From the IMG/VR virus record IMGVR_UViG_2706794662_000007: 64,000 nt of DNA. One strand, written 5' to 3'. The notes under the pieces were generated by a model. The model ran no database searches, was not told the origin of the DNA, and was given only the letters and a program-made list of their open reading frames with translations. Positions 9,216-55,321 of the stretch are shown piece by piece. Made by a program: the position numbers and the translations under genes. This DNA comes from a virus. Its lineage: Duplodnaviria > Heunggongvirae > Uroviricota > Caudoviricetes. The first letter of the stretch is position 1. Each line of letters starts with the position of its first letter.

Positions 9216-9222
9216 AAACAAT

Positions 9223-9579: not shown

Positions 9580-9843
9580 NNNNNNNNNNNNNNNNNNNNN
9601 NNNNNNNNNNNNNNNNNNNNNNNNNNNNNNNNNNNNNNNNNNNNNNNNNNNNNNNNNNNNNNNNNNNNNNNNNNNNNNNNNNNNNNNNNNNNNNNNNNNN
9701 NNNNNNNNNNNNNNNNNNNNNNNNNNNNNNNNNNNNNNNNNNNNNNNNNNNNNNNNNNNNNNNNNNNNNNNNNNNNNNNNNNNNNNNNNNNNNNNNNNNN
9801 NNNNNNNNNNNNNNNNNNNNNNNNNNNNNNNNNNNNNNNNNNN
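9580..9843. other. N-run (masked or unresolved sequence)
   Basis: 264 consecutive n. Confidence 1.
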
Positions 9844-14412: not shown

Positions 14413-14598
14413 TTAGATGAGATGGTCTAATTCATCATCTATCATGGCTTTGACGCTGGAGTCGTTCACTCCATATTTATTTATGAGCTGTTTCAGCTCT
14501 GTCGAAAACTGAAGGTAGATATCGTGAGCGTTTTTCACTGTAGGTTCAACGCCACTCATTTCAAGCGCCTTTAGTAGATATGAGTCTTCTTTAAGCAT
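14413..14598 (-). CDS. hypothetical protein
   Basis: 61 aa ORF. Confidence 0.35.
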   Translation of the reverse strand: MLKEDSYLLKALEMSGVEPTVKNAHDIYLQFSTELKQLINKYGVNDSSVKAMIDDELDHLI

Positions 14599-14634
14599 AA
14601 ATTCTCCGTTATCTAGTATGAAGCGATTGCCGGA

Positions 14635-14934
14635 TTACCATTGCCAGCACTCAAGCCCTTCAACGACCGGTGCGCCACAATCAAAATGTACAGAGTTAAA
14701 GCCTACATCAAGTACTTTCTGAATGTTCGCAATCGCACCCTCGGATATACCATATCGACGCAACTCATCTTTCCAGTCATCGTCCTGTAACCCGGCGTGG
14801 ACAATGCAACCGTACTCAATTTGTGAAACCCAATCCAGCTCATTGCTTGCGATCATGAATCGGCGAGCATCTTCCTCTGATGTATGAGATGAACTGATCA
14901 ATGCCACCTGGTAGGCTTGGGTAATGTTCAACAT
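14635..14934 (-). CDS. hypothetical protein
   Basis: 99 aa ORF; two motif A copies upstream (14947-14963, 14997-15014). Confidence 0.4.
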   Translation of the reverse strand: MLNITQAYQVALISSSHTSEEDARRFMIASNELDWVSQIEYGCIVHAGLQDDDWKDELRRYGISEGAIANIQKVLDVGFNSVHFDCGAPVVEGLECWQW

Positions 14935-15045
14935 TTCAACTACTCCAAAACAAGTTGTTTTCTTATGTGGCTTATTATCTCAATCAACAAAAGGTAGAAA
15001 ACAAATTGTTTTAGGGCTTGTGTAAATCAGGAGGGATTGTGTCTA

Positions 15046-15076
15046 TATGAAAATGCCCGGCGTGTTGCCGGGCATT
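15046..15076 (-). terminator. metG rho-independent terminator
   Basis: atgcccggcaacacgccgggcat hairpin followed by T-run on minus strand, just after metG stop. Confidence 0.6.
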
Positions 15077-15095
15077 GCGAAGAGAGGTTGTTTAA

Positions 15096-17034
15096 TTACT
15101 TAACCTGGTGGCCAGGTTTAGCACCAGCATCCGGGCTTAACAGGAAGATATCTTTCCCGCCAGGACCGGCAGCCATCACCATGCCTTCAGAGATACCGAA
15201 GCGCATTTTACGTGGTGCCAGGTTAGCCACCATAATGGTGTGACGACCAATCAGTGCCTGTGGATCTGGATAAGCGGAACGGATGCCTGAGAAGACATTA
15301 CGCTTTTCACCACCGAGATCCAGCGTCAGGCGAAGCAGTTTGTCAGAACCTTCGACAAACTCCGCGTTTTCAATCAGCGCCACACGCAGGTCAACTTTGG
15401 CGAAGTCGTCAAAGGTGATGGTTTCCTGAATCGGTTCGTCAGCCAGTGGGCCAGTTACCGGTGCAGCTGTGGCTTTCACTTCTTCTTTGGATGCTTCCAC
15501 CAGTGCTTCCACCTGTTTCATATCGATACGGTTATACAGTGCCTTGAACGGATTCACTTTATGGCCCAGAAGCGGTTGCTGGATACCATCCCAGGTCAGT
15601 TCTGTATTCAGGAATGCTTCTGCACGTTCAGTCAGTTTCGGCAGTACCGGTTTCAGGTACGTCATCAGCACGCGGAACAGGTTAATGCCCATAGAGCAAA
15701 TCGCCTGCAGATCTGCATCGCGACCTTCCTGCTTCGCCACCACCCACGGAGCCTGTTCATCGACATAGCGATTAGCCAGGTCAGCCAATGCCATGATTTC
15801 ACGGATAGCTTTACCAAATTCGCGGCTTTCCCATGCTTCGCCAATCACTTCAGCGGCATCAGTAAAGGTTTTGTACAGTTGCGGGTCAGCCAGTTCGCTT
15901 GTCAGCACGCCGTCAAAACGCTTGTTGATAAAGCCTGCATTACGGGAGGCCAGGTTAACCACTTTGTTCACGATATCGGCATTCACGCGCTGAACGAAAT
16001 CTTCCAGGTTGAGATCGATATCATCAATGCGCGAAGAGAGTTTCGCAGTGTAGTAGTAACGCAGGCTGTCAGCGTCAAAATGATTCAGCCAGGTGCTGGC
16101 TTTAATAAAGGTGCCGCGAGACTTGGACATCTTCGCGCCGTTCACCGTCACATAGCCGTGAACAAACAGGTTGGTCGGCTTGCGGAAGTTGCTGCCTTCC
16201 AGCATGGCAGGCCAGAACAGACTGTGGAAGTAAACGATATCTTTGCCGATGAAGTGGTACAGCTCGGCGGTGGAGTCTTTCTTCCAGTATTCGTCGAAGC
16301 TTACGCTGTCGCCGCGCTTGTCGCACAGATTCTTGAAAGAACCCATGTAGCCAATCGGCGCGTCCAGCCAGACGTAGAAATATTTGCCCGGCGCGTTCGN
16401 NNNNNNNNNNNNNNNNNNNNNNNNNNNNNNNNNNNNNNNNNNNNNNNNNNNNNNNNNNNNNNNNNNNNNNNNNNNNNNNNNNNNNNNNNNNNNNNNNNNN
16501 NNNNNNNNNNNNNNNNNNNNNNNNNNNNNNNNNNNNNNNNNNNNNNNNNNNNNNNNNNNNNNNNNNNNNNNNNNNNNNNNNNNNNNNNNNNNNNNNNNNN
16601 NNNNNNNNNNNNNNNNNNNNNNNNNNNNNNNNNNNNNNNNNNNNNNNNNNNNNNNNNNNNNNNNNNNNNNNNNNNNNNNNNNNNNNNNNNNNNNNNNNNN
16701 NNNNNNNNNNNNNNNNNNNNNNNNNNNNCTCTTCGCTGTGCGTCGAGTGATAGTTGTCATAGCTGATGTTAAAGCCTGCGAAATCAGTCTGATGTTCCTG
16801 ACTCATTTCGCCAATCATCTGTTCCGGTGTGATACCAAGCTGCTGTGCTTTCAGCATGATTGGCGTACCGTGGGCATCGTCGGCACAGATGAAATTAACC
16901 TCGTGGCCGCGCATTCGCTGGTAACGAACCCAGACATCAGCCTGGATGTGCTCCAGCATATGGCCGAGGTGGATTGAGCCGTTAGCGTACGGCAGCGCGC
17001 ACGTCACCAGAATTTTCTTCGCGACTTGGGTCAT
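15096..17034 (-). CDS. metG: methionyl-tRNA synthetase (interrupted by N-run 16400-16728)
   Basis: Start [29 protein letters not shown] (HIGH-type motif) and C-terminus ...[24 protein letters not shown] match E. coli MetG as I recall it; the two flanking ORF fragments are in different frames because of the N-run. Confidence 0.95.
16400..16728. other. N-run inside metG
   Basis: 329 n. Confidence 1.
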
Positions 17035-17191
17035 AGTAGGCATTACTTCTTTGTAGTGAAAAGGGGCTTGATAGTAACAAAATGGCCTTATGTCTGCCAT
17101 GTGATAACAGCATTTCTCATAAATGATTAAATGTCGTAGCTGGAGTACACTACAAGGCGACAATTGCGCAAATTAAAATAAAGGAGACGGG

Positions 17192-18292
17192 ATGAGCGAG
17201 TCCAAATCGCCGGATGCCCTGAGAGCAATGGTAGCCGGTACGCTGGCTAATTTTCAGCACCCAACCCTGAAACACAACTTGACTACGCTTAAAGCGTTAC
17301 ACCATGTTGCGTTGATGGATGACACACTGCATGTCGAACTAATCATGCCTTTCGTGTGGAATAAGCCTTTTGAAGACCTGAAAGAGCAATGTAGTGGTGA
17401 TCTGCTCCGTATCACTGGCGCAAAGGCTATTGACTGGAAGCTGTCGTACAACATTGCCACGCTTAAGCGCGTCAAAAACCAACCAGGCATTAATGGCGTT
17501 AAGAACATTATCGCCGTCAGCTCAGGCAAGGGCGGCGTGGGTAAATCCTCCACAGCAGTAAACTTGGCACTGGCTTTGGCTGCTGAAGGTGCGAAAGTTG
17601 GTATTTTGGATGCCGATATCTATGGTCCATCAATTCCAACCATGCTGGGCGCGGAAAACCAACGTCCAACCTCACCGGACGGTACTCACATGGCACCTAT
17701 CATGTCTCATGGCCTGGCAACCAACTCTATTGGTTATCTGGTCACCGATGACAATGCAATGGTGTGGCGTGGACCGATGGCGAGCAAGGCGCTGATGCAG
17801 ATGTTGCAGGAAACACTGTGGCCTGATCTGGACTATCTCGTTCTCGATATGCCACCGGGCACTGGTGATATTCAATTGACGCTGGCGCAGAACATTCCTG
17901 TAACTGGTGCGGTTGTGGTAACTACGCCGCAAGACATCGCGCTGATCGATGCGAAGAAAGGCATTGTGATGTTCGAAAAAGTCGAAGTGCCGGTACTGGG
18001 TATCGTTGAAAACATGAGTGTGCATATTTGCAGTAACTGCGGTCATCACGAGCCAATTTTTGGCACCGGTGGAGCACAGAAACTGGCCGAGAAATACAAC
18101 ACGCAGTTGTTAGGCCAAATGCCACTTCATATCTCTCTTCGTGAAGATCTGGATAACGGAACACCAACCGTTATTAGTCGTCCAGATAGCGAATTTACGG
18201 CTATTTATCGTGACCTCGCAGATCGCGTTGCTGCCCAAATGTATTGGCAAGGTGAAGTAATACCTGGCGAAATCGCATTCCGCGCAGTGTGA
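17192..18292 (+). CDS. apbC: Mrp/ApbC Fe-S cluster carrier ATPase
   Basis: 366 aa; deviant Walker A AVSSGKGGVGKSST and CxxC (CSNCGH); divergent from metG as in the E. coli chromosome. Confidence 0.95.
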   Translation: MSESKSPDALRAMVAGTLANFQHPTLKHNLTTLKALHHVALMDDTLHVELIMPFVWNKPFEDLKEQCSGDLLRITGAKAIDWKLSYNIATLKRVKNQPGINGVKNIIAVSSGKGGVGKSSTAVNLALALAAEGAKVGILDADIYGPSIPTMLGAENQRPTSPDGTHMAPIMSHGLATNSIGYLVTDDNAMVWRGPMASKALMQMLQETLWPDLDYLVLDMPPGTGDIQLTLAQNIPVTGAVVVTTPQDIALIDAKKGIVMFEKVEVPVLGIVENMSVHICSNCGHHEPIFGTGGAQKLAEKYNTQLLGQMPLHISLREDLDNGTPTVISRPDSEFTAIYRDLADRVAAQMYWQGEVIPGEIAFRAV

Positions 18293-18294
18293 TA

Positions 18295-18319
18295 AAAAGG
18301 CGGTGCATTGCACCGCCTA
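18295..18319 (-). terminator. hairpin terminator (T-run on minus strand)
   Basis: ggcggtgcaatgcaccgcc followed by ttttt on minus strand, between apbC stop and UmuD'-like stop. Confidence 0.5.
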
Positions 18320-18904: not shown

Positions 18905-19423
18905 CTAAAAATCAAANNNNNNNNNNNNNNNNNNNNNNNNNNNNNNNNNNNNNNNNNNNNNNNNNNNNNNNNNNNNNNNNNNNNNNNNNNNNNNNNNNNN
19001 NNNNNNNNNNNNNNNNNNNNNNNNNNNNNNNNNNNNNNNNNNNNNNNNNNNNNNNNNNNNNNNNNNNNNNNNNNNNNNNNNNNNNNNNNNNNNNNNNNNN
19101 NNNNNNNNNNNNNNNNNNNNNNNNNNNNNNNNNNNNNNNNNNNNNNNNNNNNNNNNNNNNNNNNNNNNNTTTAAAGGAAGATAGGTTCCCCATAGTAGCT
19201 GTCTGCCGTGCGCTCGTGTGAAATACCGGGCCATCTTCGGATTGCTATGCTGCTTAGGAGCGCCTGGTCTGTATGTCTGATACCCGGCCAACATCCCATC
19301 AAACCTGTATAGAGGGAATGTAACAACTCCTTCGCTTTCATCGATCCACTGTCTATATGGATGCACATCATAGCGGTAGTTACGAGTTAGCAAATGAGCT
19401 TCCAGCTTTCCAAATTTAGTCAT
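18905..19423 (-). CDS. hypothetical protein (interrupted by N-run)
   Basis: Start set to MTKFGKLEAH with GAGGGA ribosome-binding site; C-terminal part and frame uncertain. Confidence 0.35.
   Translation of the reverse strand: MTKFGKLEAHLLTRNYRYDVHPYRQWIDESEGVVTFPLYRFDGMLAGYQTYRPGAPKQHSNPKMARYFTRAHGRQLLWGTYLPLXXXXXXXXXXXXXXXXXXXXXXXXXXXXXXXXXXXXXXXXXXXXXXXXXXXXXXXXXXXXXXXXXXXXXXXXXXXXXXXXXXXXXFDF
18917..19169. other. N-run
   Basis: 253 n. Confidence 1.
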
Positions 19424-21475: not shown

Positions 21476-21748
21476 TTAACCCGCAGTGCNNNNNNNNNNN
21501 NNNNNNNNNNNNNNNNNNNNNNNNNNNNNNNNNNNNNNNNNNNNNNNNNNNNNNNNNNNNNNNNNNNNNNNNNNNNNNNNNNNNNNNNNNNNNNNNNNNN
21601 NNNNNNNNNNNNNNNNNNNNNNNNNNNNNNNNNNNNNNNNNNNNNNNNNNNNNNNNNNNNNNNNNNNNNNNNNNNNNNNNNNNNNNNNNNNNNNNNNNNN
21701 NNNNNNNNNNNNNNNNNNNNNNNNNNNNNNNNNNNNNNNAGTTGCCAT
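21476..21748 (-). CDS. hypothetical protein (mostly masked by N-run)
   Basis: ATG at 21748 preceded by conserved junction GGAGAGTGATATG; body is n. Confidence 0.3.
   Translation of the reverse strand: MATXXXXXXXXXXXXXXXXXXXXXXXXXXXXXXXXXXXXXXXXXXXXXXXXXXXXXXXXXXXXXXXXXXXXXXXXXXXXXXXXXXXXTAG
21490..21739. other. N-run
   Basis: 250 n. Confidence 1.
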
Positions 21749-25187: not shown

Positions 25188-26892
25188 TCATTTAACGCGT
25201 TTGAAAACGTATACGCTGACTGTGATCCCTGTGTCTTCAAACTCGTTGGTAAACGACTTCCCTCTGGCATAAACGTAATTATCCATCGTCATCCAGTCCA
25301 GTATTGGCGCNNNNNNNNNNNNNNNNNNNNNNNNNNNNNNNNNNNNNNNNNNNNNNNNNNNNNNNNNNNNNNNNNNNNNNNNNNNNNNNNNNNNNNNNNN
25401 NNNNNNNNNNNNNNNNNNNNNNNNNNNNNNNNNNNNNNNNNNNNNNNNNNNNNNNNNNNNNNNNNNNNNNNNNNNNNNNNNNNNNNNNNNNNNNNNNNNN
25501 NNNNNNNNNNNNNNNNNNNNNNNNNNNNNNNNNNNNNNNNNNNNNNNNNNNNNNNNNNNNNNNNNCCAGATCGGCGTTAATATAGGCCAGAAGATCCCCA
25601 CGTCCGGCTTGAGGCTCCAACAGCTTCTCACCAGGCTTCAATTCAGTGGCTCTGGCAACGTACTCAGCAATCAAGCGTGGGGTAGGGTAGAACTGGTGTG
25701 ATTTTGTATCCGGTATTAAACCGGTAGCCACAATCGTATTTAGCGTATGGCCGATCTCATACGGGAACTGCCAGTGCTTTTTCTCCTGCACGCCGCCAAT
25801 GAAGCTCAGTGTGCGCTCAAGCTCTTCCACCTGCGACTTCTGGAGAGCTGAATCAGAGAAGTACCATACGCCTTTGTCTTTGCTCAATCGCCCGTCACGA
25901 AGCGCAGTGCGAACCGGCACGGAGATCGTCTTCTGGATTAACCCGAACTGCTTTGGTGCCCGTGTTTTTGGCGCAGTTCGGCATGGCGCGGGGATTGCAG
26001 CAGGCATACTGTAAGCCAGCACCTCATTCAACTTCCAGGCCACGTCAGGATGTATTTCAAAGTGAACGTTGCCGTTCTTGAACATCTTCACGCGCATCAG
26101 ATTTCCATCGACGTTCATCCAGTCACCGGTCTGGCAGTCGTTTGCCCGATACGCAGCTGATAGCACCTCAGCAGTGCGGTTGATGGTAATAAATTCTTTG
26201 TGCGCGAAGAAATGAAGCAAGACACGCAGATCGTCGATGTAGTCCTCTTTGCGATAGTTCACGCTAACGCTGTCACGCCAGAAATCAGAAATGCAGTCAG
26301 CGATTATCAGACGCTCGCTGAAACCGTTTGTCTTATTTGTCTTGTGCGCAGGACTCAGCGCCTTAAACAAGCCATACACGCGCTCAGAGAGATATTTGTG
26401 CCTGTCATTCAGCAAATTAAGCATCGTTGGTATGACCGTTTCTGCTTTGAACTCCGGTACACCAACGAACTCTTTAACCTTCATCTGATAGCCGGTTCTG
26501 TCAGTTTTGATGACTTCCTGCTTGCCCTCGATAAATAGCTCACGCCACTCGTCGCGACGGGAAGCTGGCATGATCAGCAGAACGTTAGTCATATCCGTAA
26601 CCTTCCTCCAGTACTCGGCCCAAATATTCTGTTTCACCCATTCCAGATCGACGTTATCCAGCCAGACTCGATTCAAACGTGAGCGATCTTCATCTGGTCG
26701 GTGGTTTAGTCGAAGCAGGCGATTAATCATGTTGTGGCGTTCATCGCCATAAACGAAGTCGTGTACCTGATACATGAAGGAGATCTCTTTCTCGCACTCG
26801 GCCACAATTTCGTGGATGACGTTCATTTCCTGTCGATAGTCGATAGCAGTGTTTGAGCTGGCATCGCCCATGATGGAAAGGGCTGTATTCAT
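25188..26892 (-). CDS. putative N6-adenine DNA methyltransferase with large N-terminal extension (C-terminal part masked)
   Basis: FYPTPRLIAEYV followed by EPQAGRGDLLAYI (motif X then motif I, gamma-class order) just before the N-run; the catalytic (D/N)PPY region would lie in the masked part. Confidence 0.45.
25311..25565. other. N-run
   Basis: 255 n. Confidence 1.
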
Positions 26893-27951: not shown

Positions 27952-28521
27952 TCAATTAGAGCTTTGAAAGGCTTTGTGTGGCTGTGTTGCGAGGTTATGT
28001 CGATGGCTTAACTCACGCATCATGTCTTCAAGGCGACTCTTTGTGTCGTCGAGTTGGTCAGCCATTGCTCCTAAAAGCTGACGAACTACCATCGGATCGT
28101 CGCTGTTTAGTGATGGCATTTTATAACCCGCCTGAGAAGACATCAGATTGAATGCTGACATCAACATCGTTAGAGAGGATTTAAGCCCGGCAATTTCACG
28201 ATCTTTGCTGGCAATAATCGTCTCACTTTTGTTACTGTCATGAGTTCCTTGAGTCTCGATCACCATATCCAAAGTCTCTTGCAACTTATCAGCTCTCTGT
28301 TTTTCAGCAAGATAATGAACACCGAAATGATGTGCTAAAGCTACAACCTGAGTTGGCTCTTCAAAGGTGGACTCAAAATTAAGTGCTGTAACCACTCTCT
28401 CAAAAATGGAAACGTCTTCTATTCCTCGAAGAATGGCTAACATTTTGACAAGTTCATTAGCATCCATTTCTTCGAATAGGGCGTTTTGTTCATCAGCTAT
28501 TGCTTTGCATTTCTCGCACAT
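27952..28521 (-). CDS. hypothetical protein
   Basis: 189 aa ORF; motif A at 28538-28555 upstream. Confidence 0.5.
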   Translation of the reverse strand: MCEKCKAIADEQNALFEEMDANELVKMLAILRGIEDVSIFERVVTALNFESTFEEPTQVVALAHHFGVHYLAEKQRADKLQETLDMVIETQGTHDSNKSETIIASKDREIAGLKSSLTMLMSAFNLMSSQAGYKMPSLNSDDPMVVRQLLGAMADQLDDTKSRLEDMMRELSHRHNLATQPHKAFQSSN

Positions 28522-28660
28522 ATGTTTTCCTTAATGCTTAAACAAGTTGTTTTCTTATTGGCTTTATTGTGATGTGGCATAAAAGGGGAGCAAGCTAAAC
28601 GTAAAGGTGCAAACTCTCTATTTCGGTCAACGAAACACAATGGCCATTTGACCCTTGTCA

Positions 28661-28819
28661 TTAACACGTTGCTTTACGGACTAGCGGATAAGCGAAGTAG
28701 ATCGCCAGACCAATGAGGACGCCATCAGAAATGACAGACATCATCTTTCCCGTAAAATCCACCAACACCGCCATCACCAGAAGAGCAATGACGGTCACAA
28801 GCCGGAATCTCTCAAGCAT
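28661..28819 (-). CDS. small hydrophobic peptide (52 aa), coupled to TerB-like gene
   Basis: Manual translation MLERFRLVTVIALLVMAVLVDFTGKMMSVISDGVLIGLAIYFAYPLVRKATC; ATG overlaps upstream stop as TAATG; below ORF-track size cutoff. Confidence 0.35.
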   Translation of the reverse strand: MLERFRLVTVIALLVMAVLVDFTGKMMSVISDGVLIGLAIYFAYPLVRKATC

Positions 28820-29244
28820 TAGAGATAAGCATCCAGTGACAACTGAAGCGCCTGGGCGATCTTTTTCAGCGCCTGCTCTTCTGGTTCATCAATGCCGTCT
28901 TGGTCGGCAATATCAAGGCACAGACAAAGTACATCTACTGCATCATCAGTCCCGGCCACATCCGCCAGCTCACGTAAAGCCTGGGCATTAGCACGGCGCG
29001 GTGAGGCTTCGTATTGAGCGCGGATATTGGCGCTCATCTGGGCTATCTCACCAGCAAAAGGAGAAAATGCAGGCAGAGCTGCAATTGTTTTCTCAAGAAT
29101 GGAAATTTCTTTTGCATCGCATGTACCGTTGGCATAGGAGATCATGTACCCACCCCACACGGTGGCTTCAACCGCATCACGGTTCTCCATTTTTTTGACT
29201 TCGATAACTGCTTTACGAGTTTTCTTTTTGAAGAAACCTAACAT
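28819..29244 (-). CDS. TerB-like domain protein (hypothetical)
   Basis: 141 aa, all-helical profile reminiscent of TerB; motif A at 29268-29284 upstream. Confidence 0.4.
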   Translation of the reverse strand: MLGFFKKKTRKAVIEVKKMENRDAVEATVWGGYMISYANGTCDAKEISILEKTIAALPAFSPFAGEIAQMSANIRAQYEASPRRANAQALRELADVAGTDDAVDVLCLCLDIADQDGIDEPEEQALKKIAQALQLSLDAYL

Positions 29245-29337
29245 GTGTTTTCCTTTTGTTATTGGTCAAAACAAGTTGTTTTCTAGTTAAATAAATTGCT
29301 TACGCAAAGACGGTCAATGCATATGCACTAACAACCG

Positions 29338-29526
29338 TCAGAAATAACCAAGTACCGAACCGACTGGAAAAATAAAAATCCCAACTACACGAGCCAAGGT
29401 CATGCCAGCCTGAAACTGGAGATCGCCAGAGCAAACAAGTTTTATAATGTTCGATACCCAACCGGCGGCCATGAGGGCAAGAATTGCCAGCCAAATTTTT
29501 CCAAAGTGATTTGAAAACCAGTTCAT
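29338..29526 (-). CDS. small membrane protein
   Basis: 62 aa, hydrophobic segments WLAILALMAAGWV and VVGIFIFPVGSVLGYF. Confidence 0.4.
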   Translation of the reverse strand: MNWFSNHFGKIWLAILALMAAGWVSNIIKLVCSGDLQFQAGMTLARVVGIFIFPVGSVLGYF

Positions 29527-29535
29527 ACAACCGCC

Positions 29536-30051
29536 TTAGTCACAGCATGATCCTGAGTAACTGGATGAACTTGAGGTATCGCATCCACCGTCATCCCATC
29601 CAGAGTGACAGGTCGCTCTACTGGAGTGGTGGTAATTGTCGTCGACGGAGGTGTGGTGATGGATGAATCCGGCATCAAAAGGCTCTGACCGGCTGGAACG
29701 GCTACCGTCGCCAGTGAAACTATAATGAGAACGTAGGCCATTGGTTTCAGCCTCTTTCTTTGAAAATTTTCCATTCGAACTGTCCTTGTTGTTTTTCTCC
29801 TTCACTAAAGGCCGTGCATTTTTCGCTTCGCGTGAAGAACCAGAGGCAACAATCGCCCACACGTTCGCAACAACTGACGCTTGATTATCTAAACGTTCAT
29901 TCAGCAACCGAACGGTAGTCTCTAGTTCATCAAGGCGTGACATAACACGACCGCTAAATAATTCGGCCAAAATTTGACGTAAAGAACGAGGACGTTTAGT
30001 TACAGAAGTGAAATAGGTTTGACGTGCCATGTGGACTCCATCCAGTGTCAT
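29536..30051 (-). CDS. hypothetical protein (3' end ambiguous; overlapping alternative frame 29523-29774)
   Basis: N-terminal part MARQTYFTSV... is plausible; C-terminal low-complexity tail is doubtful. Confidence 0.3.
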   Translation of the reverse strand: MTLDGVHMARQTYFTSVTKRPRSLRQILAELFSGRVMSRLDELETTVRLLNERLDNQASVVANVWAIVASGSSREAKNARPLVKEKNNKDSSNGKFSKKEAETNGLRSHYSFTGDGSRSSRSEPFDAGFIHHHTSVDDNYHHSSRATCHSGWDDGGCDTSSSSSYSGSCCD

Positions 30052-30175
30052 AAAGAGTTGCGGCTGGCAATCGCCAGCCGCCTTTCTCGTTCCATCCTGG
30101 AACTGTGTCTTACCGACACATTGTCATCCTGACGCCGATAAGATACATGATTTATAATGATAGGTAAACACTTAC

Positions 30176-30769
30176 TTACTGTTTGTTATAAACAAAACCA
30201 ATATCTTTCTTGTGAGGCATATCTGCTGCTGAAAAAGCTGCGATCTTCGCGAGTCGATCACATATTTCATTTTCACGATGCCCGGCGTGACCTTTAACCC
30301 ACTTCCAGCGAACATTATGTCGACTTGCGGCCTCATCCAGACGCTTCCACAGATCAACATTCTTTACCGGTTTTTTGTCAGAAGTCATCCATCCATTGCG
30401 TTTCCACCATTTCATCCACTGTGTCATGCCGTTTTTCAGATACTGGCTATCAGAGTGCAAAATAACGTTGCATGGATATTTCAAACGCTCCAGCCCGATA
30501 AGTGCCCCCATCATCTCCATGCGGTTATTGGTGGTGCTATGAAAACCATCTGAGAACTCGCGTTCCTCGCCACGATACTGGAGAACGATACCGTAACCGC
30601 CCGGGCCACCCGGATTTTTAAGGCAAGAGCCATCACTAAAGATTTTCACGGTTTTAAGCTGGGGATTGAACTCTACGACAGGCGTTGTGGGATTGGTGCG
30701 GGGAGAATTTTTGTTTTTGTCTTTTTTGCGAGTTTTTGCTTGCGGTCGGGCTGGTGTCTTCGTTGTCAT
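30176..30769 (-). CDS. rnhA: ribonuclease HI
   Basis: [19 protein letters not shown]...HSDSQY...[16 protein letters not shown] matches the RNase H fold catalytic pattern; start set to MTTKTPAR. Confidence 0.85.
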
Positions 30770-31350
30770 ATAAACTCCTGAATCAAGCGCCGCGCCGATT
30801 TTTCCTCGCGCGTGCGCACACGCGTGCGTGTTAATAATTATTAAAATAAACAAATTACTTCCCAGAACAGGTTTTTATAAACCTGAACTGAACGAACGAA
30901 GTGAGTGAAGTTCACCTCGAACGAAGTGAGAGGTTGTCTTTTCAGGTAATACTCTCCCAGGGAGGTGAGTATAAAATTCCTCACCAACCTGGTCGTTTCA
31001 TAACCTGAAAAGCTATGGTCTAAGTCTACTGCCAGCTTAGACTTGGGAAGTTATGGATGACAGCACCCCAGAACCGAGATCTTCCCACACTTTATGAAGG
31101 GGAGTACTGGATTCAACCTCTCGAAACACCCCAGACTCGACAATCATAAAGTGACCCTTGTCTCCGCTCACTTTGGTTCCCCCTTCCCCGACACCTAAAC
31201 GGCACCGGTTCTACGCTGGTAGTGAGCTTTTTTAAACCTGACGCCAGTGACGCTTACCCCCACCCATCAGGTCGAGTCTCCAGTCTACGACTGGAAACTA
31301 TCAGATCTTAGCACTTACAATTCATCTTATGAATAGTTTGTACTTATCTA

Positions 31351-31768: not shown

Positions 31769-32362
31769 CTAAGCAGCCTTCTTTGATGGTCTTTTTTTCC
31801 TGATCACATTCGCAGGATCATACCCTCCCAGACTTTTCATGACGTCCAAAGGGATCTTGCTTATAGAGTGCCCAGCGTCCTGACAGAATCCTCGAAAAAC
31901 AACGAGCATACTGCCACCGGGGTTGATGTTTACTTCTACCTGACCCAAATTGACGTCAGGCTCGACAAACGCTACGCGGCCACCAGACAGAATAATCGTC
32001 TCATTCGCATACTCTGTTGCACGCTCATACCACTTTGTATCGAGGGATTGAGGAATTAGCATCACTGTAGTAACTCCGCGAGCCTGCTCACGTATAGCAG
32101 CATCAATCCAGGGGGAGATTTTGGAGTAGGGTGGATTGAGGAAGGCAATTGTACCTGGCTGTCCCCATTCAGATTTCAAAGCATCACGCTCAATGCCTAT
32201 GAAATTAGGCAGCTTTGCGTTGTCCTTGTTGCAGGCAACGTCAACATCAAATGTCACTCCAAGATAACGTTGAATGGCAGAAAACAGCCAATCAGGTGTT
32301 CTCCAGAGGTCACGAAGAGAGTTGTCGCGCTTTCGCTGTTTGATTTTTTCGGCTGCAATCAT
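31769..32362 (-). CDS. phage-type N6-adenine DNA methyltransferase (Dam-like)
   Basis: TPDWLF and NPPY motifs; about 197 aa typical of the phage Dam family. Confidence 0.75.
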   Translation of the reverse strand: MIAAEKIKQRKRDNSLRDLWRTPDWLFSAIQRYLGVTFDVDVACNKDNAKLPNFIGIERDALKSEWGQPGTIAFLNPPYSKISPWIDAAIREQARGVTTVMLIPQSLDTKWYERATEYANETIILSGGRVAFVEPDVNLGQVEVNINPGGSMLVVFRGFCQDAGHSISKIPLDVMKSLGGYDPANVIRKKRPSKKAA

Positions 32363-43272: not shown

Positions 43273-45195
43273 AGCTGCGCCCCTCTTTAACTTCCAGCGT
43301 AATAGTTTCCCGGAACCATGACTTCATCTCTTTATGGGAGATAATCAGCACAGTACCTCGCTCGCGAGCTTTGGACTCCAGAATACCCATGAGGCGTTCA
43401 AGACCGGCTGTATCGAGTGCATCGTCAATTTCGTCGCCGATAAACAAATCGATGTTTTTACTCGCCCGGTTACTAACCAGATCCTGCAATGCCAAAGAAC
43501 ACGCAATGCGAACCTTCCGCTTCTCACCACCAGAGAGGGTCTGGAACGACTTACTTGAACCTTTCTTCTGCACACTAATGTTGAATTTGTCGCGATACTC
43601 ACCTTTTTTGGTGACATCCATCGTCGACCACTCAGCAGTAATATTCCCGTCAGACAACGTATTGAGATACTCGGCAGTGCGTGTATTCAGGAAAGGCGTA
43701 ACAGACGTCAAAATATGAGAACGCACCCCGGCAGGAGAGTAGACCTGACGAGCTTTTTCCAATAGCAACGTTTGTTCCTGAATAGCCTTCAACTCATCTT
43801 TTAAGGACTTGAAGGTAGACTTACTGGATACCAGGTTATCTTCGTGTCTGGCGATAAGAGCAATAAACGGATTAATCTCTTTTGATATACGATCGACCTC
43901 AGTACGAGCACGAGTCACAAGAGACTCAATAGCAACAATCTCCTTCTCACGATGACGCAAAGATGAGAGTTGTTTCGTAAGCTCTTCAATCCGGGCAATG
44001 ATAGCCGTTACATCAGGTGTCGTTTTAACAAGGGCAGACTCAATGCTTAACGCTTTCTCAAGATTCGTTTTGTGTTTAGCCATTGCCTCTGCAAGTGTCT
44101 TCGCCTGACCAATTTCCTGACGTGCTTGTTCAATGAAATTCTCCTTCACCGTTGATAGATCTTCTTCGCAGTAGGCTTTGCCACAAGTAGGGCATGGTGA
44201 TCCCACTTTAGTACCAACCTCTTCTGCTTTGGTCTTAAAATTACGCGCGCGGTTCATTGCATCAGCCTGACTATTTTCTGTAGCTTTGATGCTTGCCCGA
44301 ATATCAGTTATCGCACCACGAACNNNNNNNNNNNNNNNNNNNNNNNNNNNNNNNNNNNNNNNNNNNNNNNNNNNNNNNNNNNNNNNNNNNNNNNNNNNNN
44401 NNNNNNNNNNNNNNNNNNNNNNNNNNNNNNNNNNNNNNNNNNNNNNNNNNNNNNNNNNNNNNNNNNNNNNNNNNNNNNNNNNNNNNNNNNNNNNNNNNNN
44501 NNNNNNNNNNNNNNNNNNNNNNNNNNNNNNNNNNNNNNNNNNNNNNNNNNNNNNNNNNNNNNNNNNNNNNNNNNNNNNNNNNNNNNGATTGTCGACTCCA
44601 ATTTGGTTTTAACCACATCCATACGTGCGGCAGCTGCATTAGCTCGCTCACGAGCAATAGCGTAGGCGCGTGTCAGTCTGTCAACGCCAGCGGCTTCTTC
44701 TACGATGGTTTTGAGGTTTTTGTCGGACATTCCAGGTAAATCTGGCATAGCTTCTTGGCTCGCATAGATGGAAGCCATGAAAACCTCTTTAGATGCACCG
44801 ATCAGACGCTCGACGAACTCTTGCGTCAGCGCATCTTTGCCTTTCGTCATATCGCCGTCTTCACCACGAACGATAAGCCGATTTTTGAACTCTTTGTGTT
44901 TACGGTGACGAATGATCGCATATCTCTTGCCTTCATCCTCGATGGTTACTGCAACACGACAGTTCTTTTCATGGTCGGTAGACAACACATCGTCACCCTT
45001 CACACCATGAGCTGTTTCGCCATAAAGACACCACATCAGGCTATTCATTAGCGTTGACTTTCCAGAGCCATTACTTGATGCGGAACTATCATCACTATTA
45101 ACACCCTGAATGAGCACTAAACCACGCTGATCTAACTCGACCTCCGCGCTGGCGATAGCCATAAAATTCTCAACCTGGAGCTTTAAAAACTTCAT
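43262..45195 (-). CDS. SbcC/Rad50-like ATPase (gp46-like), interrupted by N-run 44324-44586
   Basis: N-terminal Walker A GSNGSGKST; C-terminal signature LSGGEKRK and Walker B LFIGDEID; coiled-coil middle. Confidence 0.8.
44324..44586. other. N-run
   Basis: 263 n. Confidence 1.
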
Positions 45196-46764: not shown

Positions 46765-47409
46765 TTACAGCGCGTCAGTGGGCTTTTTACGCGCTGCGTT
46801 TATGCTTATGACGCCAGCTTTTGGACGTGGGTCAACAAGGTTAAGCTCTTCTTCGCTGTGGTATTCGAGGTCGAACTCACGTTTTACATGTCTGATGTAG
46901 ATTGCGGTGAGCAGGCTATCTTTGGTCAGAAAGTGTCCGTAGGATTTGCGGATCACTTCTTCTACCTTCTCGATTTTCTCACCACCCATACAGAGATGAT
47001 TAAACCGGCTGTGTTTCCGCAACATTTCGTCTACTGGGCCTGAGTAAACCTTGTCTACTTTCCCAAAACGGATGATTTTTCCTGTGTCTGCGGATACGAG
47101 GCAAATCAGCTTGTCTGGTGATAAACGATCTCGCCACGTCACACCTGAACGGAGTGTGTTGAAGTAGGGGGCATCCAATCCGATGATCGGTTTACGAAAT
47201 GCGAGTAATGGAACGTACCTGATGCAACTGTTTAAATGAAAATTCACACCAGCCTTATCAAGTTTAATTCTGGTTTCGTAGATCGGGCACTTCGCCGCTA
47301 TACCGCAGATGTCACAAAGCAACTTCTGCTTATTCAGGTTGGAATTTGATTCGATAGTGTAGGAGCCGTCTTCAAGACGACGAACCCAGCGCGTGCGTTT
47401 TAGATCCAT
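46765..47409 (-). CDS. hypothetical protein (Cys-containing)
   Basis: 214 aa ORF. Confidence 0.5.
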   Translation of the reverse strand: MDLKRTRWVRRLEDGSYTIESNSNLNKQKLLCDICGIAAKCPIYETRIKLDKAGVNFHLNSCIRYVPLLAFRKPIIGLDAPYFNTLRSGVTWRDRLSPDKLICLVSADTGKIIRFGKVDKVYSGPVDEMLRKHSRFNHLCMGGEKIEKVEEVIRKSYGHFLTKDSLLTAIYIRHVKREFDLEYHSEEELNLVDPRPKAGVISINAARKKPTDAL

Positions 47410-47495
47410 ATGTCATTTTTCTGTGATTGTTAGCCGAGGCAACGATAACCCACCAGGTGCGCCGAAGGTAGTAAATGCCTGTTTTAATTATTCAC

Positions 47496-47570
47496 ATATC
47501 CACAGGATAGATCCTAATAAAGAGATCCATAGATAGATCCTTATATAGATCAAATAAGATCCCCGATCGC
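47496..47570. promoter_or_regulatory. origin elements: DnaA-box-like site plus cluster of GATC-containing heptamers
   Basis: atatccaca (8/9 match to TTATCCACA) followed by five AGATCC/AGATCA repeats and cgatcg, immediately upstream of the iterons. Confidence 0.6.
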
Positions 47571-47608
47571 TGTAAGCCGCGCCACGACTGGTCTGAAGTC
47601 ATGTTCAT

Positions 47609-47710
47609 GTATGCTGTCAGCGGTAATTGATAGTCTGTCAGCGGTTCACCGTATGCTGCCAACTGTTTTTGGTATTCTGTCAGCGGCAAATCAAGTATGC
47701 TGTCAGCGGT
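47609..47710 (+). repeat. five upstream iterons, consensus (g)tatgctgtcagcggt
   Basis: Copies at about 47609, 47632, 47651, 47674, 47695, ending 21 nt before the repA ATG. Confidence 0.85.
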
Positions 47711-47730
47711 TGAATGACAAAGGTGTCCAC

Positions 47731-48825
47731 ATGTCCACAAAAAATAAAAAAGGTAAAAATAACAAAGAAGTAGAAGATAACATCGACAACTTTGAAGAAG
47801 GTTCCCTTGAATTGTACACAGGGGAACTTGTCCCTAATAGCAACAATACAGTCCAACCAATTGCGTTGATGCGACTGGGGTTGTTCGTCCCCACGCTTAA
47901 GGGAACAAAATACAGTAAACGTAACAAGCCAAATGAGATCGATGCTTCAAAGGAGCTTGTCCAGCTCGAAGTAGCCCGTTCTGAAGGCTATTCCGATATC
48001 AAGATAACCGGTCCTCGTCTCGACATGGATCATGATTTCAAAACGTGGGTGGGCGTTGTGCGTTCGCTGGCAGAATACGGCGAACCTAACGGTCGTGTCG
48101 AGTTAAGCATCACGAAATTTGCTAAGTTTTGTGGCTATCCATCGTCACAGATCCGCAAAACACTCCGCGACCGGCTTACAAACAGTCTTTTGAAGATCAT
48201 GCGTACAACTCTGTCTTTCCAGAGAACGTATGAAGAAAAGAACGTCGACGGCTCTAACAAGATCTCGCTTCTGATGGTGCACCTCATCAATAGCGTGGAC
48301 TACAACGAGCAGAAAGATACGGTGGTGTTCTATGCAGAACCGAAGCTGGCCGAACTATATCGCTTTGACCATAAGGTTCTTTTGCAGTTAAAGGTTATCA
48401 ATAAGCTACCACGCAAAGAAACAGCACAGGCTCTGTACACCTTCATCGAAAGTCTTCCAACCAAGCCTGCGCCGGTATCGCTTGCTCGATTGCGTGCGCG
48501 ACTCAATTTGAGTAGCAGGAATGTCAGCTCGCAGAATCAGACTATACGTAACGGCTTAAAAGCTCTCCAAGATTTGGGCTATCTCGAATACAGCGAGATT
48601 AAGCGTGGGCGGTCGATCTATATCCAGATTCACAGCCGCAATCCAAAACTCAAAGTCGCACCGCCAAAACCTGAAGACATCGAACCCAAAAAACCAGATG
48701 AGAAAGCTGGGGAAATTGATGCCAAACAGAACATTATCAACAAGATAACCGAACTTTCGCAGAATTTGACGCCTGAAAATATCAAGATGATTGAGATCCT
48801 TTCCAATAGTCTCAAACTGCTTTGA
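47731..48825 (+). CDS. repA: iteron-binding replication initiator RepA (P1-type)
   Basis: NSNNTVQPIALMRLGLFVP...GYSDIKITGPRLDMDHDFKTW...ALYTFIESLP...IHSRNPKLK resembles P1-family RepA as I recall it; start set to MSTKNKK (M41 of track ORF). Confidence 0.85.
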   Translation: MSTKNKKGKNNKEVEDNIDNFEEGSLELYTGELVPNSNNTVQPIALMRLGLFVPTLKGTKYSKRNKPNEIDASKELVQLEVARSEGYSDIKITGPRLDMDHDFKTWVGVVRSLAEYGEPNGRVELSITKFAKFCGYPSSQIRKTLRDRLTNSLLKIMRTTLSFQRTYEEKNVDGSNKISLLMVHLINSVDYNEQKDTVVFYAEPKLAELYRFDHKVLLQLKVINKLPRKETAQALYTFIESLPTKPAPVSLARLRARLNLSSRNVSSQNQTIRNGLKALQDLGYLEYSEIKRGRSIYIQIHSRNPKLKVAPPKPEDIEPKKPDEKAGEIDAKQNIINKITELSQNLTPENIKMIEILSNSLKLL

Positions 48826-49357
48826 TATGCTGTCAGCGGTGAAATGTATGCTATCAGCGGCTATTTTTCTGAAAAGTATGCTGTGAACGGTTAAAGATAT
48901 GCTACCAGCGGTATAGTGAGATGAACGTATGCTGTGAGCGGTAAATCATCTATCACCACTCAATGCTCTGTCATACCTCCCCAGTGGTTACTAACCTCGA
49001 AGAGTGCATTCCATATAGGTTTGCGCTCACTAACATTCTATTGCTATTGCGCTGATTGCTTGTAGTGAAAGGCATTTATTGCCTGCTACTCCCTGATAGA
49101 ACGTATGCTGTCAGCGGTGTTTTATTGAGGAATTTTTGTTTGGATATGCTATCAGCGGTAATTAATGGCATATGTCAGACATTCGTATGCTGCCAGCGGT
49201 AATTTTGTTCTGGTTATACCCATACCGGTACACATTATTCATGCAATGTCTTAAGTATGCTGTCAGCGGTAAAAAATCGAGTAAAGTATGCTGTGAGCGG
49301 TGAGATAGACTCTCGATATGCTATCAGCGGTAGTTGATTGTGTATGCTGTCAGCGGT
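48824..49357 (+). repeat. downstream iteron array (12 copies in two groups)
   Basis: tatgctNNcagcggt copies at about 48824, 48846, 48876, 48896, 48926, then 49103, 49143, 49184, 49254, 49285, 49315, 49341; all same orientation. Confidence 0.85.
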
Positions 49358-49404
49358 GACGACTATGAAATATGACTGCGGAACGTGCCGCAGTCAGTTT
49401 GCAT

Positions 49405-49617
49405 TTAGTGTATTTTCTTTAACAGACCCCAAAGTGTACCGGCTTTTGTAGTCAGTTTTCCTGTTTCTGGATCGTACATACGCCATTCACGCCGCTGGTG
49501 GACGATATACCCATCTTCACGTTCCAGACGCTCAAGAATGCCAGGCTGCTTGAAACCCTTAGCACGCCAGTAGCCGCTTGTTTTCTCGATTTCCAGACCT
49601 GCCAGTGTTAATGCCAT
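49405..49617 (-). CDS. hypothetical protein
   Basis: 70 aa ORF; hairpin 49373-49394 downstream. Confidence 0.4.
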   Translation of the reverse strand: MALTLAGLEIEKTSGYWRAKGFKQPGILERLEREDGYIVHQRREWRMYDPETGKLTTKAGTLWGLLKKIH

Positions 49618-54230: not shown

Positions 54231-55321
54231 TTACTCTTCTACTGACTCGGTGGGGTTGTCTTTTGCTCTTCGGTCGTCGATTGCCTGCAAAGCCGCAATG
54301 ATTTCAGCCAGTGGCTTCTCCCGATACATCTCGACGATCTGCGATTTGGTGTATTTCTTGTCACCAATTTCAACTCGCCCGCTGGCGTTCTTTGGCAGGT
54401 ATCCTTCTTCCAGCATGTACTCGACGAGCGATTCGATAACGTCGAGGCCACGAGTAGGATCGAAGTAGAATTTCCAGGTGCATTTGCCATACGGTGGTGC
54501 AACTTTGTTTTTGATGCATTCTGCGCCTACGTCCTGGCCGATCTTCTCTTTACCATCCTTCATCACCGATGCACCAAGACGGATACGTACAGAAGCGTAG
54601 AACTTCGGTGAATCTCCACCTGGAGACGTAGTAGGGTCGCCAAACATTACACCGATTTTTGTGCGAACCTGATTCAAGAAGATGATGCAGGCGTTGTATT
54701 TGCGTGCCCACAAAGCCAGAGTAGGGAAGTTCGCACTTGTCGCACGAGCCAGTGCCGTATTGTCGTTCATGTTTAGCTGATCTTTGTCTTTGGCAGTGCC
54801 TTCAGCCATCTTTTCGAACTTCTCGGCTTTGGAGTTCGGAACCATAGACGCAAGTGAGTCAGCCACGATACAGATAGGTGCTGATTCAGGAATAAGCTCT
54901 TCATCACGTACCAATTTAAGAATTGTGCCGATCAACTCTACAGAGTCTTCGAAGGTATCAGGCTGCTTGTATACCCACTGACCGTCATCCTCATCTGCAT
55001 TCAAACCATTGGCTACAGCCAGGCCAACGTCAAAACTGTTCTCATGATCGAGGANNNNNNNNNNNNNNNNNNNNNNNNNNNNNNNNNNNNNNNNNNNNNN
55101 NNNNNNNNNNNNNNNNNNNNNNNNNNNNNNNNNNNNNNNNNNNNNNNNNNNNNNNNNNNNNNNNNNNNNNNNNNNNNNNNNNNNNNNNNNNNNNNNNNNN
55201 NNNNNNNNNNNNNNNNNNNNNNNNNNNNNNNNNNNNNNNNNNNNNNNNNNNNNNNNNNNNNNNNNNNNNNNNNNNNNNNNNNNNNNNNNNNNNNNNNNNN
55301 NNNNNNNNNNNNTTTTGCCAT
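54231..55321 (-). CDS. RecA-family recombinase (UvsX/RecA-like), interrupted by N-run 55055-55312
   Basis: C-terminal part ...IIFLNQVRTKIGVMFGDPTTSPGGDSPKFYASVRIRLG matches the RecA core (loop L2 region); N-terminal ATG at 55321; Walker motifs presumably masked. Confidence 0.8.
55055..55312. other. N-run
   Basis: 258 n. Confidence 1.

Follow-up and report, generated by a model that had tools for sequence, protein, structure and literature searches.

A probable P1-type plasmid replicon in an SSU5-like siphovirus phage-plasmid of Escherichia coli

Within a 64,000-nucleotide stretch of tailed-virus DNA (IMG/VR record IMGVR_UViG_2706794662_000007; hereafter the window), a gene for a candidate replication initiator is bracketed by many copies of one short repeat. 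Is this the replicon by which the element persists as a plasmid, and how closely does it follow that of phage P1? Our analysis indicates that the locus is very probably the plasmid replicon that an SSU5-like siphovirus phage-plasmid (p09EL50/pECOH89 lineage) uses in its prophage state, and that it is homologous to P1 oriR-repA-incA.

The 2 kb replicon region is 100% identical to E. coli plasmid p09EL50, and the remainder of the window is collinear with that plasmid, mostly at 97-99.9% with one stretch of ~3 kb (6648-9579) at 90%; the synteny of the flanks with SSU5 is conserved. Among 5,426 complete E. coli genomes the replicon was found in 120 (~2%; 185 places), without exception in plasmid records, which are of ~105-112 kb, and it was chromosomal in none of the 120. 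These counts support the plasmid maintenance of the element that an initial annotation of the window had proposed. The phage-plasmid group to which it belongs is found in E. coli and Shigella, and some of its members carry blaCTX-M-15.

The RepA of pECOH89 is identical to that of p09EL50 (PMC3999498) and has been typed as IncFIB(H89-PhagePlasmid) (PMC12838234), which is the PlasmidFinder type of the present replicon; the SSU5 supergroup as a whole is typed IncFIB (PMC7969092). In PLSDB/MOB-suite p09EL50 has a single replicon type, rep_cluster_488. The element had also been said to carry phage structural genes and T4-like replication genes. The former are present on the reference plasmid but lie beyond the window, while for the latter the nucleotide-metabolism genes and an SbcCD-like nuclease pair fit the description and the replicative polymerase, being DnaE-type, does not. 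A Dam-family methyltransferase of the element's own is encoded at 31769-32362. In the literature on SSU5 and phage-plasmids we found no experiment on this replicon, and iterons are mentioned in none of these papers save one on an unrelated Acinetobacter plasmid.

Layout of the iterons and the origin core

The features of the locus are as follows (window coordinates).

47410..49404, + strand: whole replicon cassette, intergenic to intergenic, delimited by sliding identity against near-identical backbones
47488..47504, + strand: tandem DnaA boxes TTATTCACA and ATATCCACA at the outer origin edge, from a consensus scan
47508..47569, no strand: cluster of GATC (Dam) sites, 66% AT, at 47510, 47524, 47536, 47548, 47558 and 47565
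47570..47609, no strand: G+C-rich block from the GATC cluster to the iterons, core GCCGCGCCACGACTGG at 47576-47591
47610..47710, + strand: five origin iterons (incC equivalent) at 47610, 47631, 47652, 47673 and 47696
47720-47725: ribosome-binding site of repA, AAGGTG
47723..47739, + strand: weak DnaA-box-like 9-mers GTGTCCACA and ATGTCCACA at the inner origin edge, overlapping the repA start
47731..48825, + strand: repA, 364 aa, Rep_3-family (WH1-WH2) iteron-binding initiator of the P1/RepFIB type
48826..48942, + strand: control block 1, five direct iterons at 48826, 48847, 48877, 48898 and 48928
48943..49103, no strand: iteron-free spacer of 161 bp between the control blocks
49104..49357, + strand: control block 2, seven direct iterons at 49104, 49145, 49186, 49256, 49287, 49317 and 49343
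49373..49396, no strand: G+C-rich hairpin with a 9-bp stem, terminator-like on both strands

With up to 3 mismatches allowed, the 15-mer TATGCTGTCAGCGGT has 20 matches in the 64 kb window, where the chance expectation is 1.65 (sd 1.18; maximum of 5 in 100 shuffles). Seventeen iterons of this sequence lie at 47610-49357, every one on the + strand, and their information content extends the unit to 16 bp, (G/A)TATGCTGTCAGCGGT, with a purine ahead of TATG. The total of 17 agrees with that given by the initial annotation, as do the five copies ahead of repA and the two groups (5 + 7) behind it; the interval of about 160 bp reported between these groups measures 161 bp, or 176 bp start to start. The origin iterons are spaced at 21/21/21/23, those of control block 1, the first of which abuts the repA stop codon (TGA), at 21/30/21/30, and those of control block 2 at 41/41/70/31/30/26. 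The terminator-like hairpin sits between the last iteron and a convergent downstream gene.

At the outer edge of the origin, TTATTCACA (47488-47496) is a perfect match to TTWTNCACA and is followed in tandem by ATATCCACA (47496-47504), so that the DnaA-box-like site noted earlier is present, not singly, but as two boxes. Both match the annotated DnaA-binding site of P1 oriR column for column in an alignment, and both are kept in PhiR41_1 and in Klebsiella pJN2-26. Next to them GATC occurs six times within 59 bp (47510-47568), a density that has a Poisson probability of ~2e-7 per position given the frequency of GATC in the window as a whole. Five of the six are the GATC heptamers recognised previously, of the form AGATC[C/A], to which CGATCG has to be added as a sixth. 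The five Dam sites annotated in P1 oriR are the counterpart of this cluster in an alignment, and each of the 37 complete related loci has six sites. The G+C-rich block that follows contains GCCGCGCCACGnCTGG, common to the window, P1 and the Klebsiella lineage, and 100 IMG/VR loci were recovered with a search pattern based on it (50 P1-type, 28 window-type and 22 Klebsiella-type). At the inner edge, the aligned counterparts of GTGTCCACA are CTATCCACA in P1 and GTATCCACA in the Klebsiella relative; as GTGTCCACA and ATGTCCACA have 2 mismatches apiece to the consensus, we treat them as putative inner-edge DnaA sites.

A scan for the sigma-70 promoter consensus gave nothing on the + strand within the iterons and only chance-level matches on the - strand, and the hexamers at the position equivalent to P1 PrepA are TTTTGG/TCAAGT, so repA autorepression is unsupported by the sequence. 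Within the 161-bp spacer, promoter matches were likewise at chance level, and the replicon region, spacer included, had no Rfam match for structured RNA at E <= 1. By eye CCCCAGTGGTTA in this spacer resembles an inverted SSU5 iteron; its reading as a relic was rejected by a scan with a PWM from SSU5 iterons, which had no match of >=9 bits in 47400-49450 and 6 in the whole window.

The RepA initiator and the comparison with P1

The start of repA is most likely the ATG at 47731, giving 364 aa, rather than the mechanical (and PGAP) start at 47611, which falls within iteron 1. RepA matches a plasmid Rep family, Pfam Rep3_N, above the gathering threshold (residues 118-239, E 3.9e-9, 37.5 bits, cut-off 22.4); NCBIfam assigned it to no family. 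By BLASTP it shares 46% identity with P1 RepA in an alignment of 278 columns that takes in residues 20-284 of the 286 in the P1 protein (E 3e-86; by tblastn, E 2e-64). A protein search returned 477 homologues, with PF01051 in 120 of 120 among the matches listed, and was dominated by proteins that are 320-380 aa long and 50-58% identical to the query, with RepFIB or RepA as the name of many.

An AF2 model of RepA (pLDDT 70.3) matched only iteron-binding initiators in Foldseek, and the top PDB matches were RctB (domains 2-3, E 6.5e-8), RepE (6e-5 to 1e-3), pi (6e-3), pPS10 RepA (through its WH1) and TrfA. Although the TM-scores are modest (0.37-0.55, target-normalised), the model points to a two-winged-helix fold resembling that of RepE, pi and pPS10 RepA. 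Sequence searches of the PDB, whether with RepA singly or with a 34-sequence profile, found no initiator, and only the fold search succeeded. Mini-F RepE/ori2 and RctB/ori2 of Vibrio cholerae chromosome 2 thus have an initiator fold in common with the present RepA but no detectable sequence similarity to it. Both systems likewise combine origin iterons with a separate negative-control array, and RctB replication depends on Dam (PMC6090056), but the negative control of RctB acts via 39-mers, unlike that of the replicon described here.

Support for the P1 oriR/incC/repA/incA arrangement, which had been proposed from layout, comes from homology as well, both in RepA and in the origin core. The P1 replicon, of incompatibility group IncY, also has tandem DnaA boxes, GATC heptamers, the GCCGCGCCACGnCTGG block and five origin iterons, which can be aligned at base level, as well as an inner DnaA-type box at the origin edge; DNA identity in the core of DnaA boxes and GATC sites is 72%. 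Its incA begins at the last base of repA, much as the control array here starts directly after the stop codon. The two replicons differ in origin spacing (21/21/21/22 in P1), in the number of Dam sites (five in P1, six here) and in the iteron itself, which is GATGTGTGCTGGAGGGAAA in P1 and (G/A)TATGCTGTCAGCGGT here. P1 has 9 control iterons, 3 direct and 6 inverted (an orientation of +++------ in 35 of 40 complete P1-type loci), whereas the 12 here are all direct and fall into blocks of 5 + 7. The present RepA carries ~30 extra N-terminal residues, predicted to be disordered, and ~55 extra C-terminal residues predicted as a linker and two helices. No counterpart of the P1 PrepA consensus was recognised in the promoter scan. 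Finally, parAB-parS adjoins incA in P1, but no parAB is found beside the control locus here, where the downstream genes encode small hypothetical proteins on the opposite strand; a ParA/MipZ-like ATPase is encoded ~31 kb off, at 93565-94233 of p09EL50, beyond the window.

Relatives, constraint and exchange of the module

Among the relatives are the Klebsiella pKpn-type phage-plasmids (for example pJN2-26 and ST13-OXA48phi12.3), whose RepA is 85% identical and whose iteron consensus is the same. Their origin half does not differ from that of the window in its two DnaA boxes, its six GATC sites or its five iterons spaced at 21/21/21/23, whereas their control locus has 8 or 9 iterons (4 + 4/5) with a gap of 87 bp start to start, and their spacers are ~50% diverged from those of the window. 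Between the E. coli and Klebsiella lineages the iterons differ at 13 of 135 sites and the spacers at 26 of 53 (Fisher p = 1.4e-8), and the contrast is seen both in the origin (iterons 6/75, spacers 12/26) and in control block 1 (7/60 and 14/27). These substitution patterns indicate purifying selection on the iterons when the spacers are taken as the reference.

Across relatives the origin half is invariant and the control half variable. Of the 37 complete related loci, 36 have the five origin iterons at a spacing of 21/21/21/23 and one has a degenerate third copy, while the control array has 12, 9 or 8 copies. Within the E. coli lineage the 161-bp length of the control spacer is equal in all 23 complete loci, and block 2 has seven iterons in 22 of these 23; PhiR41_1 has lost the last three through an 87-bp deletion.

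The replicon of SSU5, pHCM2 and pLF82 (Cyrano) is found at the equivalent genomic position, with the same two genes on either side, whose proteins are 86% and 94% identical. Its RepA belongs to the same family and its DnaA/GATC core is 75% identical to that of the window, but the RepA is just 45% identical, as distant as that of P1, and the iteron, [T/A]A[T/A]CCACTGTAGAGAG, is unrelated. Its upstream origin module is tandemly duplicated, and it has ~14 downstream iterons in both orientations. Four near-identical backbones (L115, L120, L123 and L128) carry this SSU5-type replicon, and the window is 97-100% identical to them up to ~47405 and again from ~49410, with 40-80% identity between. Sliding identity thus provides good support for the view that the module at 47410-49404, whose edges are the start codon of a 214-aa gene upstream (47409) and the stop codon of a 70-aa gene downstream (49405), has been swapped as a cassette with the SSU5-type replicon. 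The same analysis led us to reject a narrower swap of the iterons and repA with the DnaA/GATC core as part of the backbone, since the breakpoint at ~47405-47410 places the origin core within the cassette, where it is merely conserved. Across cassette types the DnaA boxes and the Dam/SeqA heptamers are kept, while RepA and all iterons are replaced jointly.

The RepFIB replicons (F, P307 and enterobacterial IncFIB) are a further group of relatives, most of whose RepAs share the C-terminal helical tail that is absent from P1 RepA and whose iteron specificities differ from that of the window. IncFIB(H89-PhagePlasmid) and IncFIB(AP001918) plasmids co-reside in the same strains (PMC12838234), and from this co-residence the two would appear to be functionally compatible. 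For the present replicon we predict incompatibility with the phage-plasmids of Klebsiella with which it has its iteron in common, and compatibility with pLF82/SSU5-type phage-plasmids and F-type IncFIB plasmids.

A P1-like model and its alternatives

We take the mechanism of P1 from its GenBank annotation, from the titles in reference lists and from established knowledge, and it is from P1 that we infer handcuffing, Dam/SeqA dependence and low copy number for the present replicon. A 1995 paper is reportedly titled 'Control of P1 plasmid replication by iterons', and Das & Chattoraj are said to have dealt with origin pairing (handcuffing) in 2004. By this analogy, RepA monomers would bind the five 16-bp origin iterons, set two helical turns apart, and host DnaA would bind the tandem outer-edge boxes and probably the weak inner-edge boxes too. 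RepA and DnaA together would open the A+T-rich region of the GATC heptamers, which would fire only if Dam-methylated, with SeqA sequestering the hemimethylated form, and theta replication with host enzymes should follow. The 12 downstream iterons would be non-initiating and would reduce copy number both by binding, and so titrating, RepA and by handcuffing, in which they would pair in cis or in trans with iterons of the origin, and RepA bound at the origin iterons would probably repress its own promoter. With regard to copy number, the one value found was for the relative Cyrano/pLF82, which has the other RepA type and is present at 5.5 copies per cell, above strict unit copy (PMC9928086). A 2026 heteroresistance preprint on phage-plasmid copy-number mutants was set aside as irrelevant here, as it concerns another family under CopA/CopT control.

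Titration and handcuffing by the downstream arrays are indistinguishable from sequence, the arrays are all direct and divided by an invariant 161-bp spacer, and their size varies naturally (12, 9 or 8 copies), so it is possible, though in our judgement unlikely, that within the same replicon family they work chiefly by titrating RepA, or by blocking transcription or replication forks, rather than by origin pairing, and that block 2 may be unrelated to copy control. Set against this, pairing is held to be the main inhibitory mechanism in P1 and other iteron plasmids (PMC3401445), and the arrays are positionally homologous to P1 incA. Improbable, too, is the idea that the module is, or doubles as, the origin of lytic phage DNA replication. 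It does lie amid DNA-metabolism genes (an SbcCD-like nuclease, NrdAB, a DnaE-type polymerase and a primase), and a separate lytic origin was not identified in the present analysis; but lytic replication of P1 is served by a separate replicon, the homologue of RepA/oriR serving the plasmid state, and ordinary non-phage plasmids carry members of this RepA family in abundance. Moreover, the cassette is freely exchanged between near-identical phage backbones, as would be expected of a plasmid incompatibility module.

Two further readings would deny the locus a role in replication today. One might suppose an inactive relic in an element kept by another origin; yet repA is intact, purifying selection acts on the iterons relative to the spacers, the architecture is invariant over dozens of loci and no other replicon is typed on the reference plasmid, which together make a relic very improbable. 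The repeats could otherwise be att sites or some other recombination target around an inserted gene, as suggested by the GenBank record of Klebsiella phage pJN2-26, in which two of them are labelled attR and attL. An att-site reading is effectively refuted by 13-17 copies instead of two, by their helical-phase spacing, by their position around a Rep_3 initiator in the exact P1 arrangement and by the lack of any chromosomal copy of the element in the 120 complete genomes.

The P1-type plasmid replicon that we favour is real but ordinary, and reveals no new mechanism. Its practical value is that the origin, the initiator and the predicted copy-control sites of a widespread phage-plasmid group can be placed to the base, that a 2-kb fragment from which mini-replicons could be built is defined, and that several annotation errors are put right (iterons recorded as att sites, a RepA start placed too far upstream, and a helicase label on RepA). 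Beyond the cassette exchange, which is well supported, a bolder proposal that we consider doubtful is that SSU5-like elements carry a hot-swappable incompatibility cassette in which an iteron-recombining array serves as the copy-number setting and block 2 or the spacer has a distinct role. If true, the all-direct, two-block array would grow and shrink by iteron-iteron recombination, providing an evolvable setting of copy number, and a role absent from P1 incA could fall to block 2 and to the 161-bp spacer of invariant length.

The iteron replicon and its RepA initiator

A well-known phage-plasmid lineage has the module at 47490-49360 as its plasmid replicon. The initial annotation, which had described it as a complete P1-type iteron replicon, proved real and correctly read as a whole. 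Scanning the window for the 15-mer TATGCTGTCAGCGGT with up to 3 mismatches returned 20 matches versus 1.65 expected by chance, 17 of which cluster at 47610-49357, every one on the plus strand. These are the 17 iterons first described, at the positions claimed for them, and they form groups of 5, 5 and 7. Column information content defines the repeat unit as 16 bp, (G/A)TATGCTGTCAGCGGT.

Features of the replicon and the element's predicted methyltransferase, in 5' to 3' order
31769-32362, minus strand: Dam-family methyltransferase gene (197 aa; PF05869 N6-adenine, E 5e-38)
47488-47504: two tandem DnaA boxes, the first a perfect TTWTNCACA
After the DnaA boxes: GATC cluster, 6 sites in 59 bp (66% A+T), five being AGATC[C/A] heptamers
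Between GATC sites and origin iterons: G+C-rich block, 40 bp
5' of repA, plus strand: five origin iterons, spacing 21/21/21/23 bp
Overlapping the repA start: two weak DnaA-like 9-mers
47731-48825: repA, from the favoured start
48826-48942, plus strand: control block 1, five iterons directly 3' of the repA stop codon
49104-49357, plus strand: control block 2, seven iterons beyond a 161-bp gap after block 1
49373-49396: hairpin with a 9-bp stem, ending the module

The DnaA-box-like site noted initially is thus present, as a tandem pair rather than a single site, and the five heptamers stand within a total of six GATC sites whose clustering has a Poisson P of ~2e-7 per position. In the 70-bp gap of control block 2 lies TTATACCCA (49214-49222), which matches exactly the first of the DnaA-like boxes in origin copy 1 of phage-plasmid SSU5; it may represent weak DnaA binding within the control locus or a chance match.

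The mechanical ORF, identical to the RefSeq/PGAP call, gives a 404-aa RepA that starts at 47611 within iteron 1, and its 40 extra codons (47611-47730) are translated iteron array. We favour ATG 47731 (364 aa) as the probable start because P1 RepA homology begins at residue 32 of this form, a Shine-Dalgarno AAGGTG lies 5 nt 5' of it, the record of phage PhiR41_1 uses the same start, and the Klebsiella homologue retains the N-terminus. The proposed membership of RepA in a plasmid Rep family was borne out by a profile search, which matched Pfam Rep3_N above the gathering threshold. A protein search placed it in the large enterobacterial RepFIB/RepA group (477 matches), with PF01051 in 120 of 120 homologues among the matches listed. 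PDB sequence searches gave no match, and the leading Foldseek hits of an AlphaFold2 model (pLDDT 70) were all iteron-binding initiators (RctB domains 2-3, RepE, pi, pPS10 RepA WH1 and TrfA). The PHROGs family phrog_775 and several RefSeq phage records (P1/P7/SSU5) call P1-type RepA a 'replication helicase'; since the fold is that of a two-winged-helix initiator without an NTPase domain, this label is wrong.

Common descent with the P1 replicon and a proposed mechanism

RepA is 46% identical to P1 RepA over essentially the full P1 protein (E 3e-86), from which it differs by ~30 extra, predicted disordered residues at the N-terminus and, at the C-terminus, a linker with two helices. This C-terminal tail is common to most RepFIB-type homologues, making P1 RepA the short outlier. 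The P1 record AF234172 runs from a DnaA site through five Dam sites, five incC iterons (21/21/21/22) and repA to nine incA iterons, with PrepA inside the incC iterons and the first incA iteron at the stop codon of repA. When the origins are aligned as DNA, the DnaA boxes of the two coincide, the GATC heptamers line up with the P1 Dam sites, the G+C block GCCGCGCCACGnCTGG is common to both, and the DnaA and GATC core is 72% identical. This feature-on-feature correspondence therefore reflects common descent and not merely a similar layout. The oriR/incC/repA/incA reading is thereby upheld, and the module clearly belongs to the P1/RepFIB family of iteron replicons.

Searching IMG/VR with a pattern built from the core common to both gave 100 contigs (50 P1-type, 28 window-type and 22 Klebsiella-type). 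P1-type loci have five origin iterons and a control array of mostly nine, oriented +++------, whereas the window lineage has 12, all direct and in two blocks, a longer RepA, and no adjacent par operon. One candidate for its partition system lies far from the replicon, where two adjoining ParB_N-domain proteins are encoded beside an ABC-type ATPase (window ~2500-4550; p09EL50 14387-16397); another is a ParA/MipZ-like ATPase with a 117-aa partner beyond the window (p09EL50 93206-94233).

By homology with P1, on which every step is modelled, RepA would bind the five phased origin iterons and DnaA the flanking boxes, the methylated A+T-rich GATC region would melt open, and SeqA would sequester the hemimethylated origin once fired. 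The 12 downstream iterons would hold copy number down through titration and origin pairing. Autorepression is the weakest link, because a promoter scan found no consensus promoter among the iterons. The one copy number found, 5.5 per cell, belongs to Cyrano/pLF82, a carrier of the other RepA type (PMC9928086). If GATC-specific, the element's predicted Dam-family enzyme could methylate the six origin sites without host Dam, so that even in a dam- host the origin of the full element could be methylated.

Distribution and conservation

Plasmid p09EL50 of E. coli O104:H4 carries the 2-kb replicon region at 100% identity, as do many plasmids of ~110 kb from E. coli and Shigella; in the phage records PhiR41_1 and CMS-2020a the identity is 99.3-100%. 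Elsewhere the window is collinear with p09EL50 and mostly 97-99.9% identical, except for ~3 kb at 6648-9579 (90%). Seven N runs of ~250-330 bp mask sequence (9580-9843, 16400-16728, 18917-19169, 21490-21739, 25311-25565, 44324-44586 and 55055-55312), one of them splitting an SbcC-like gene just 5' of the replicon. Two host-like genes are annotated at ~15050-18300 (p09EL50 28005-31296): metG, for methionine-tRNA ligase, and apbC, for an Fe-S cluster carrier.

Plasmids similar to p09EL50 include pLF82, pHCM2 and pMT1 (PMC3486847), and the CTX-M-15 phage-like plasmid pECOH89 has an identical RepA (PMC3999498), typed by PlasmidFinder as IncFIB(H89-PhagePlasmid) (PMC12838234); SSU5 supergroup phage-plasmids are likewise typed IncFIB (PMC7969092). 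The replicon is carried by 120 of 5,426 complete E. coli genomes, with 185 of 185 places on plasmid records and 0 on a chromosome, and no other replicon type is given for p09EL50. Individual E. coli ST38 isolates contain both IncFIB(H89-PhagePlasmid) and IncFIB(AP001918)-IncFII plasmids (PMC12838234, plasmid tables), so the common 'IncFIB' label need not mean incompatibility. Typing databases already include the rep gene; an anatomy of the origin at base level is absent from searchable literature and record annotations.

The phage structural genes attributed to this element were located on the reference plasmid, but beyond the window. Replication-type neighbours include a DnaE-type polymerase, primase, SbcCD-like nuclease, NrdAB, thymidylate synthase and DHFR. 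The label 'T4-like' suits the genes for nucleotide metabolism and the nuclease; it does not suit the polymerase.

Between the E. coli and Klebsiella lineages (RepA 85% identical, repA DNA 76%), 13 of 135 iteron 15-mer positions differ, versus 26 of 53 in the inter-iteron spacers (Fisher p = 1.4e-8), a comparative pattern that we take as evidence for functional repeats. Among complete related loci, six GATC sites are present in 37/37 and five origin iterons at 21/21/21/23 in 36/37, the third origin iteron being degenerate in the remaining one. Of the 23 E. coli-lineage loci, 22 have twelve control iterons at near-identical spacing; the Klebsiella lineage has 8 or 9. PhiR41_1 (PV340561) has 9, an 87-bp inter-iteron deletion after 4075 having taken the last three; this natural variant in an infectious relative would be useful for relating array size to copy number. 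P1-type loci follow the same pattern in their origin and control iterons. In the record of the Klebsiella phage-plasmid pJN2-26 (MZ779062), iterons at 1878-1897 and 3148-3167 are labelled phage attR/attL, an annotation artefact of a repeat-based prophage-boundary call.

Exchange of the replicon cassette

A single slot between conserved 214-aa and 70-aa genes holds a window-, Klebsiella- or SSU5-type RepA, depending on the contig; the window, SSU5 and P1 RepAs are ~45-47% identical pairwise. In four contigs (L115, L120, L123 and L128) the flanks match the window at 96-100% identity, yet the replicon between them is of the SSU5 type. Sliding identity places the breakpoints at ~47405-47410 and ~49405-49410, where the upstream gene has its start codon and the downstream gene its stop codon, so the exchanged unit is the entire module (47410-49404). 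Replicase alternatives at a fixed position (IncY versus p0111) are described in P1-like phage-plasmids (PMC7969092), making such a swap a known kind of event. The DnaA/GATC core lies inside the exchanged module and is 70-80% similar between cassette types, which we read as probable constraint from shared host factors.

The SSU5-type cassette differs from that of the window in its unrelated iteron, in ~12-14 downstream iterons in both orientations (~25 iterons in total), and in a tandemly duplicated origin module 5' of repA, in which a DnaA box, GATC cluster and 5-6 iterons occur twice.

Duplicated origin modules of SSU5-type cassettes
SSU5 (JQ965645): 2280-2499 and 2655-2896
L115, reverse complement: 5231-5428 and 5557-5829
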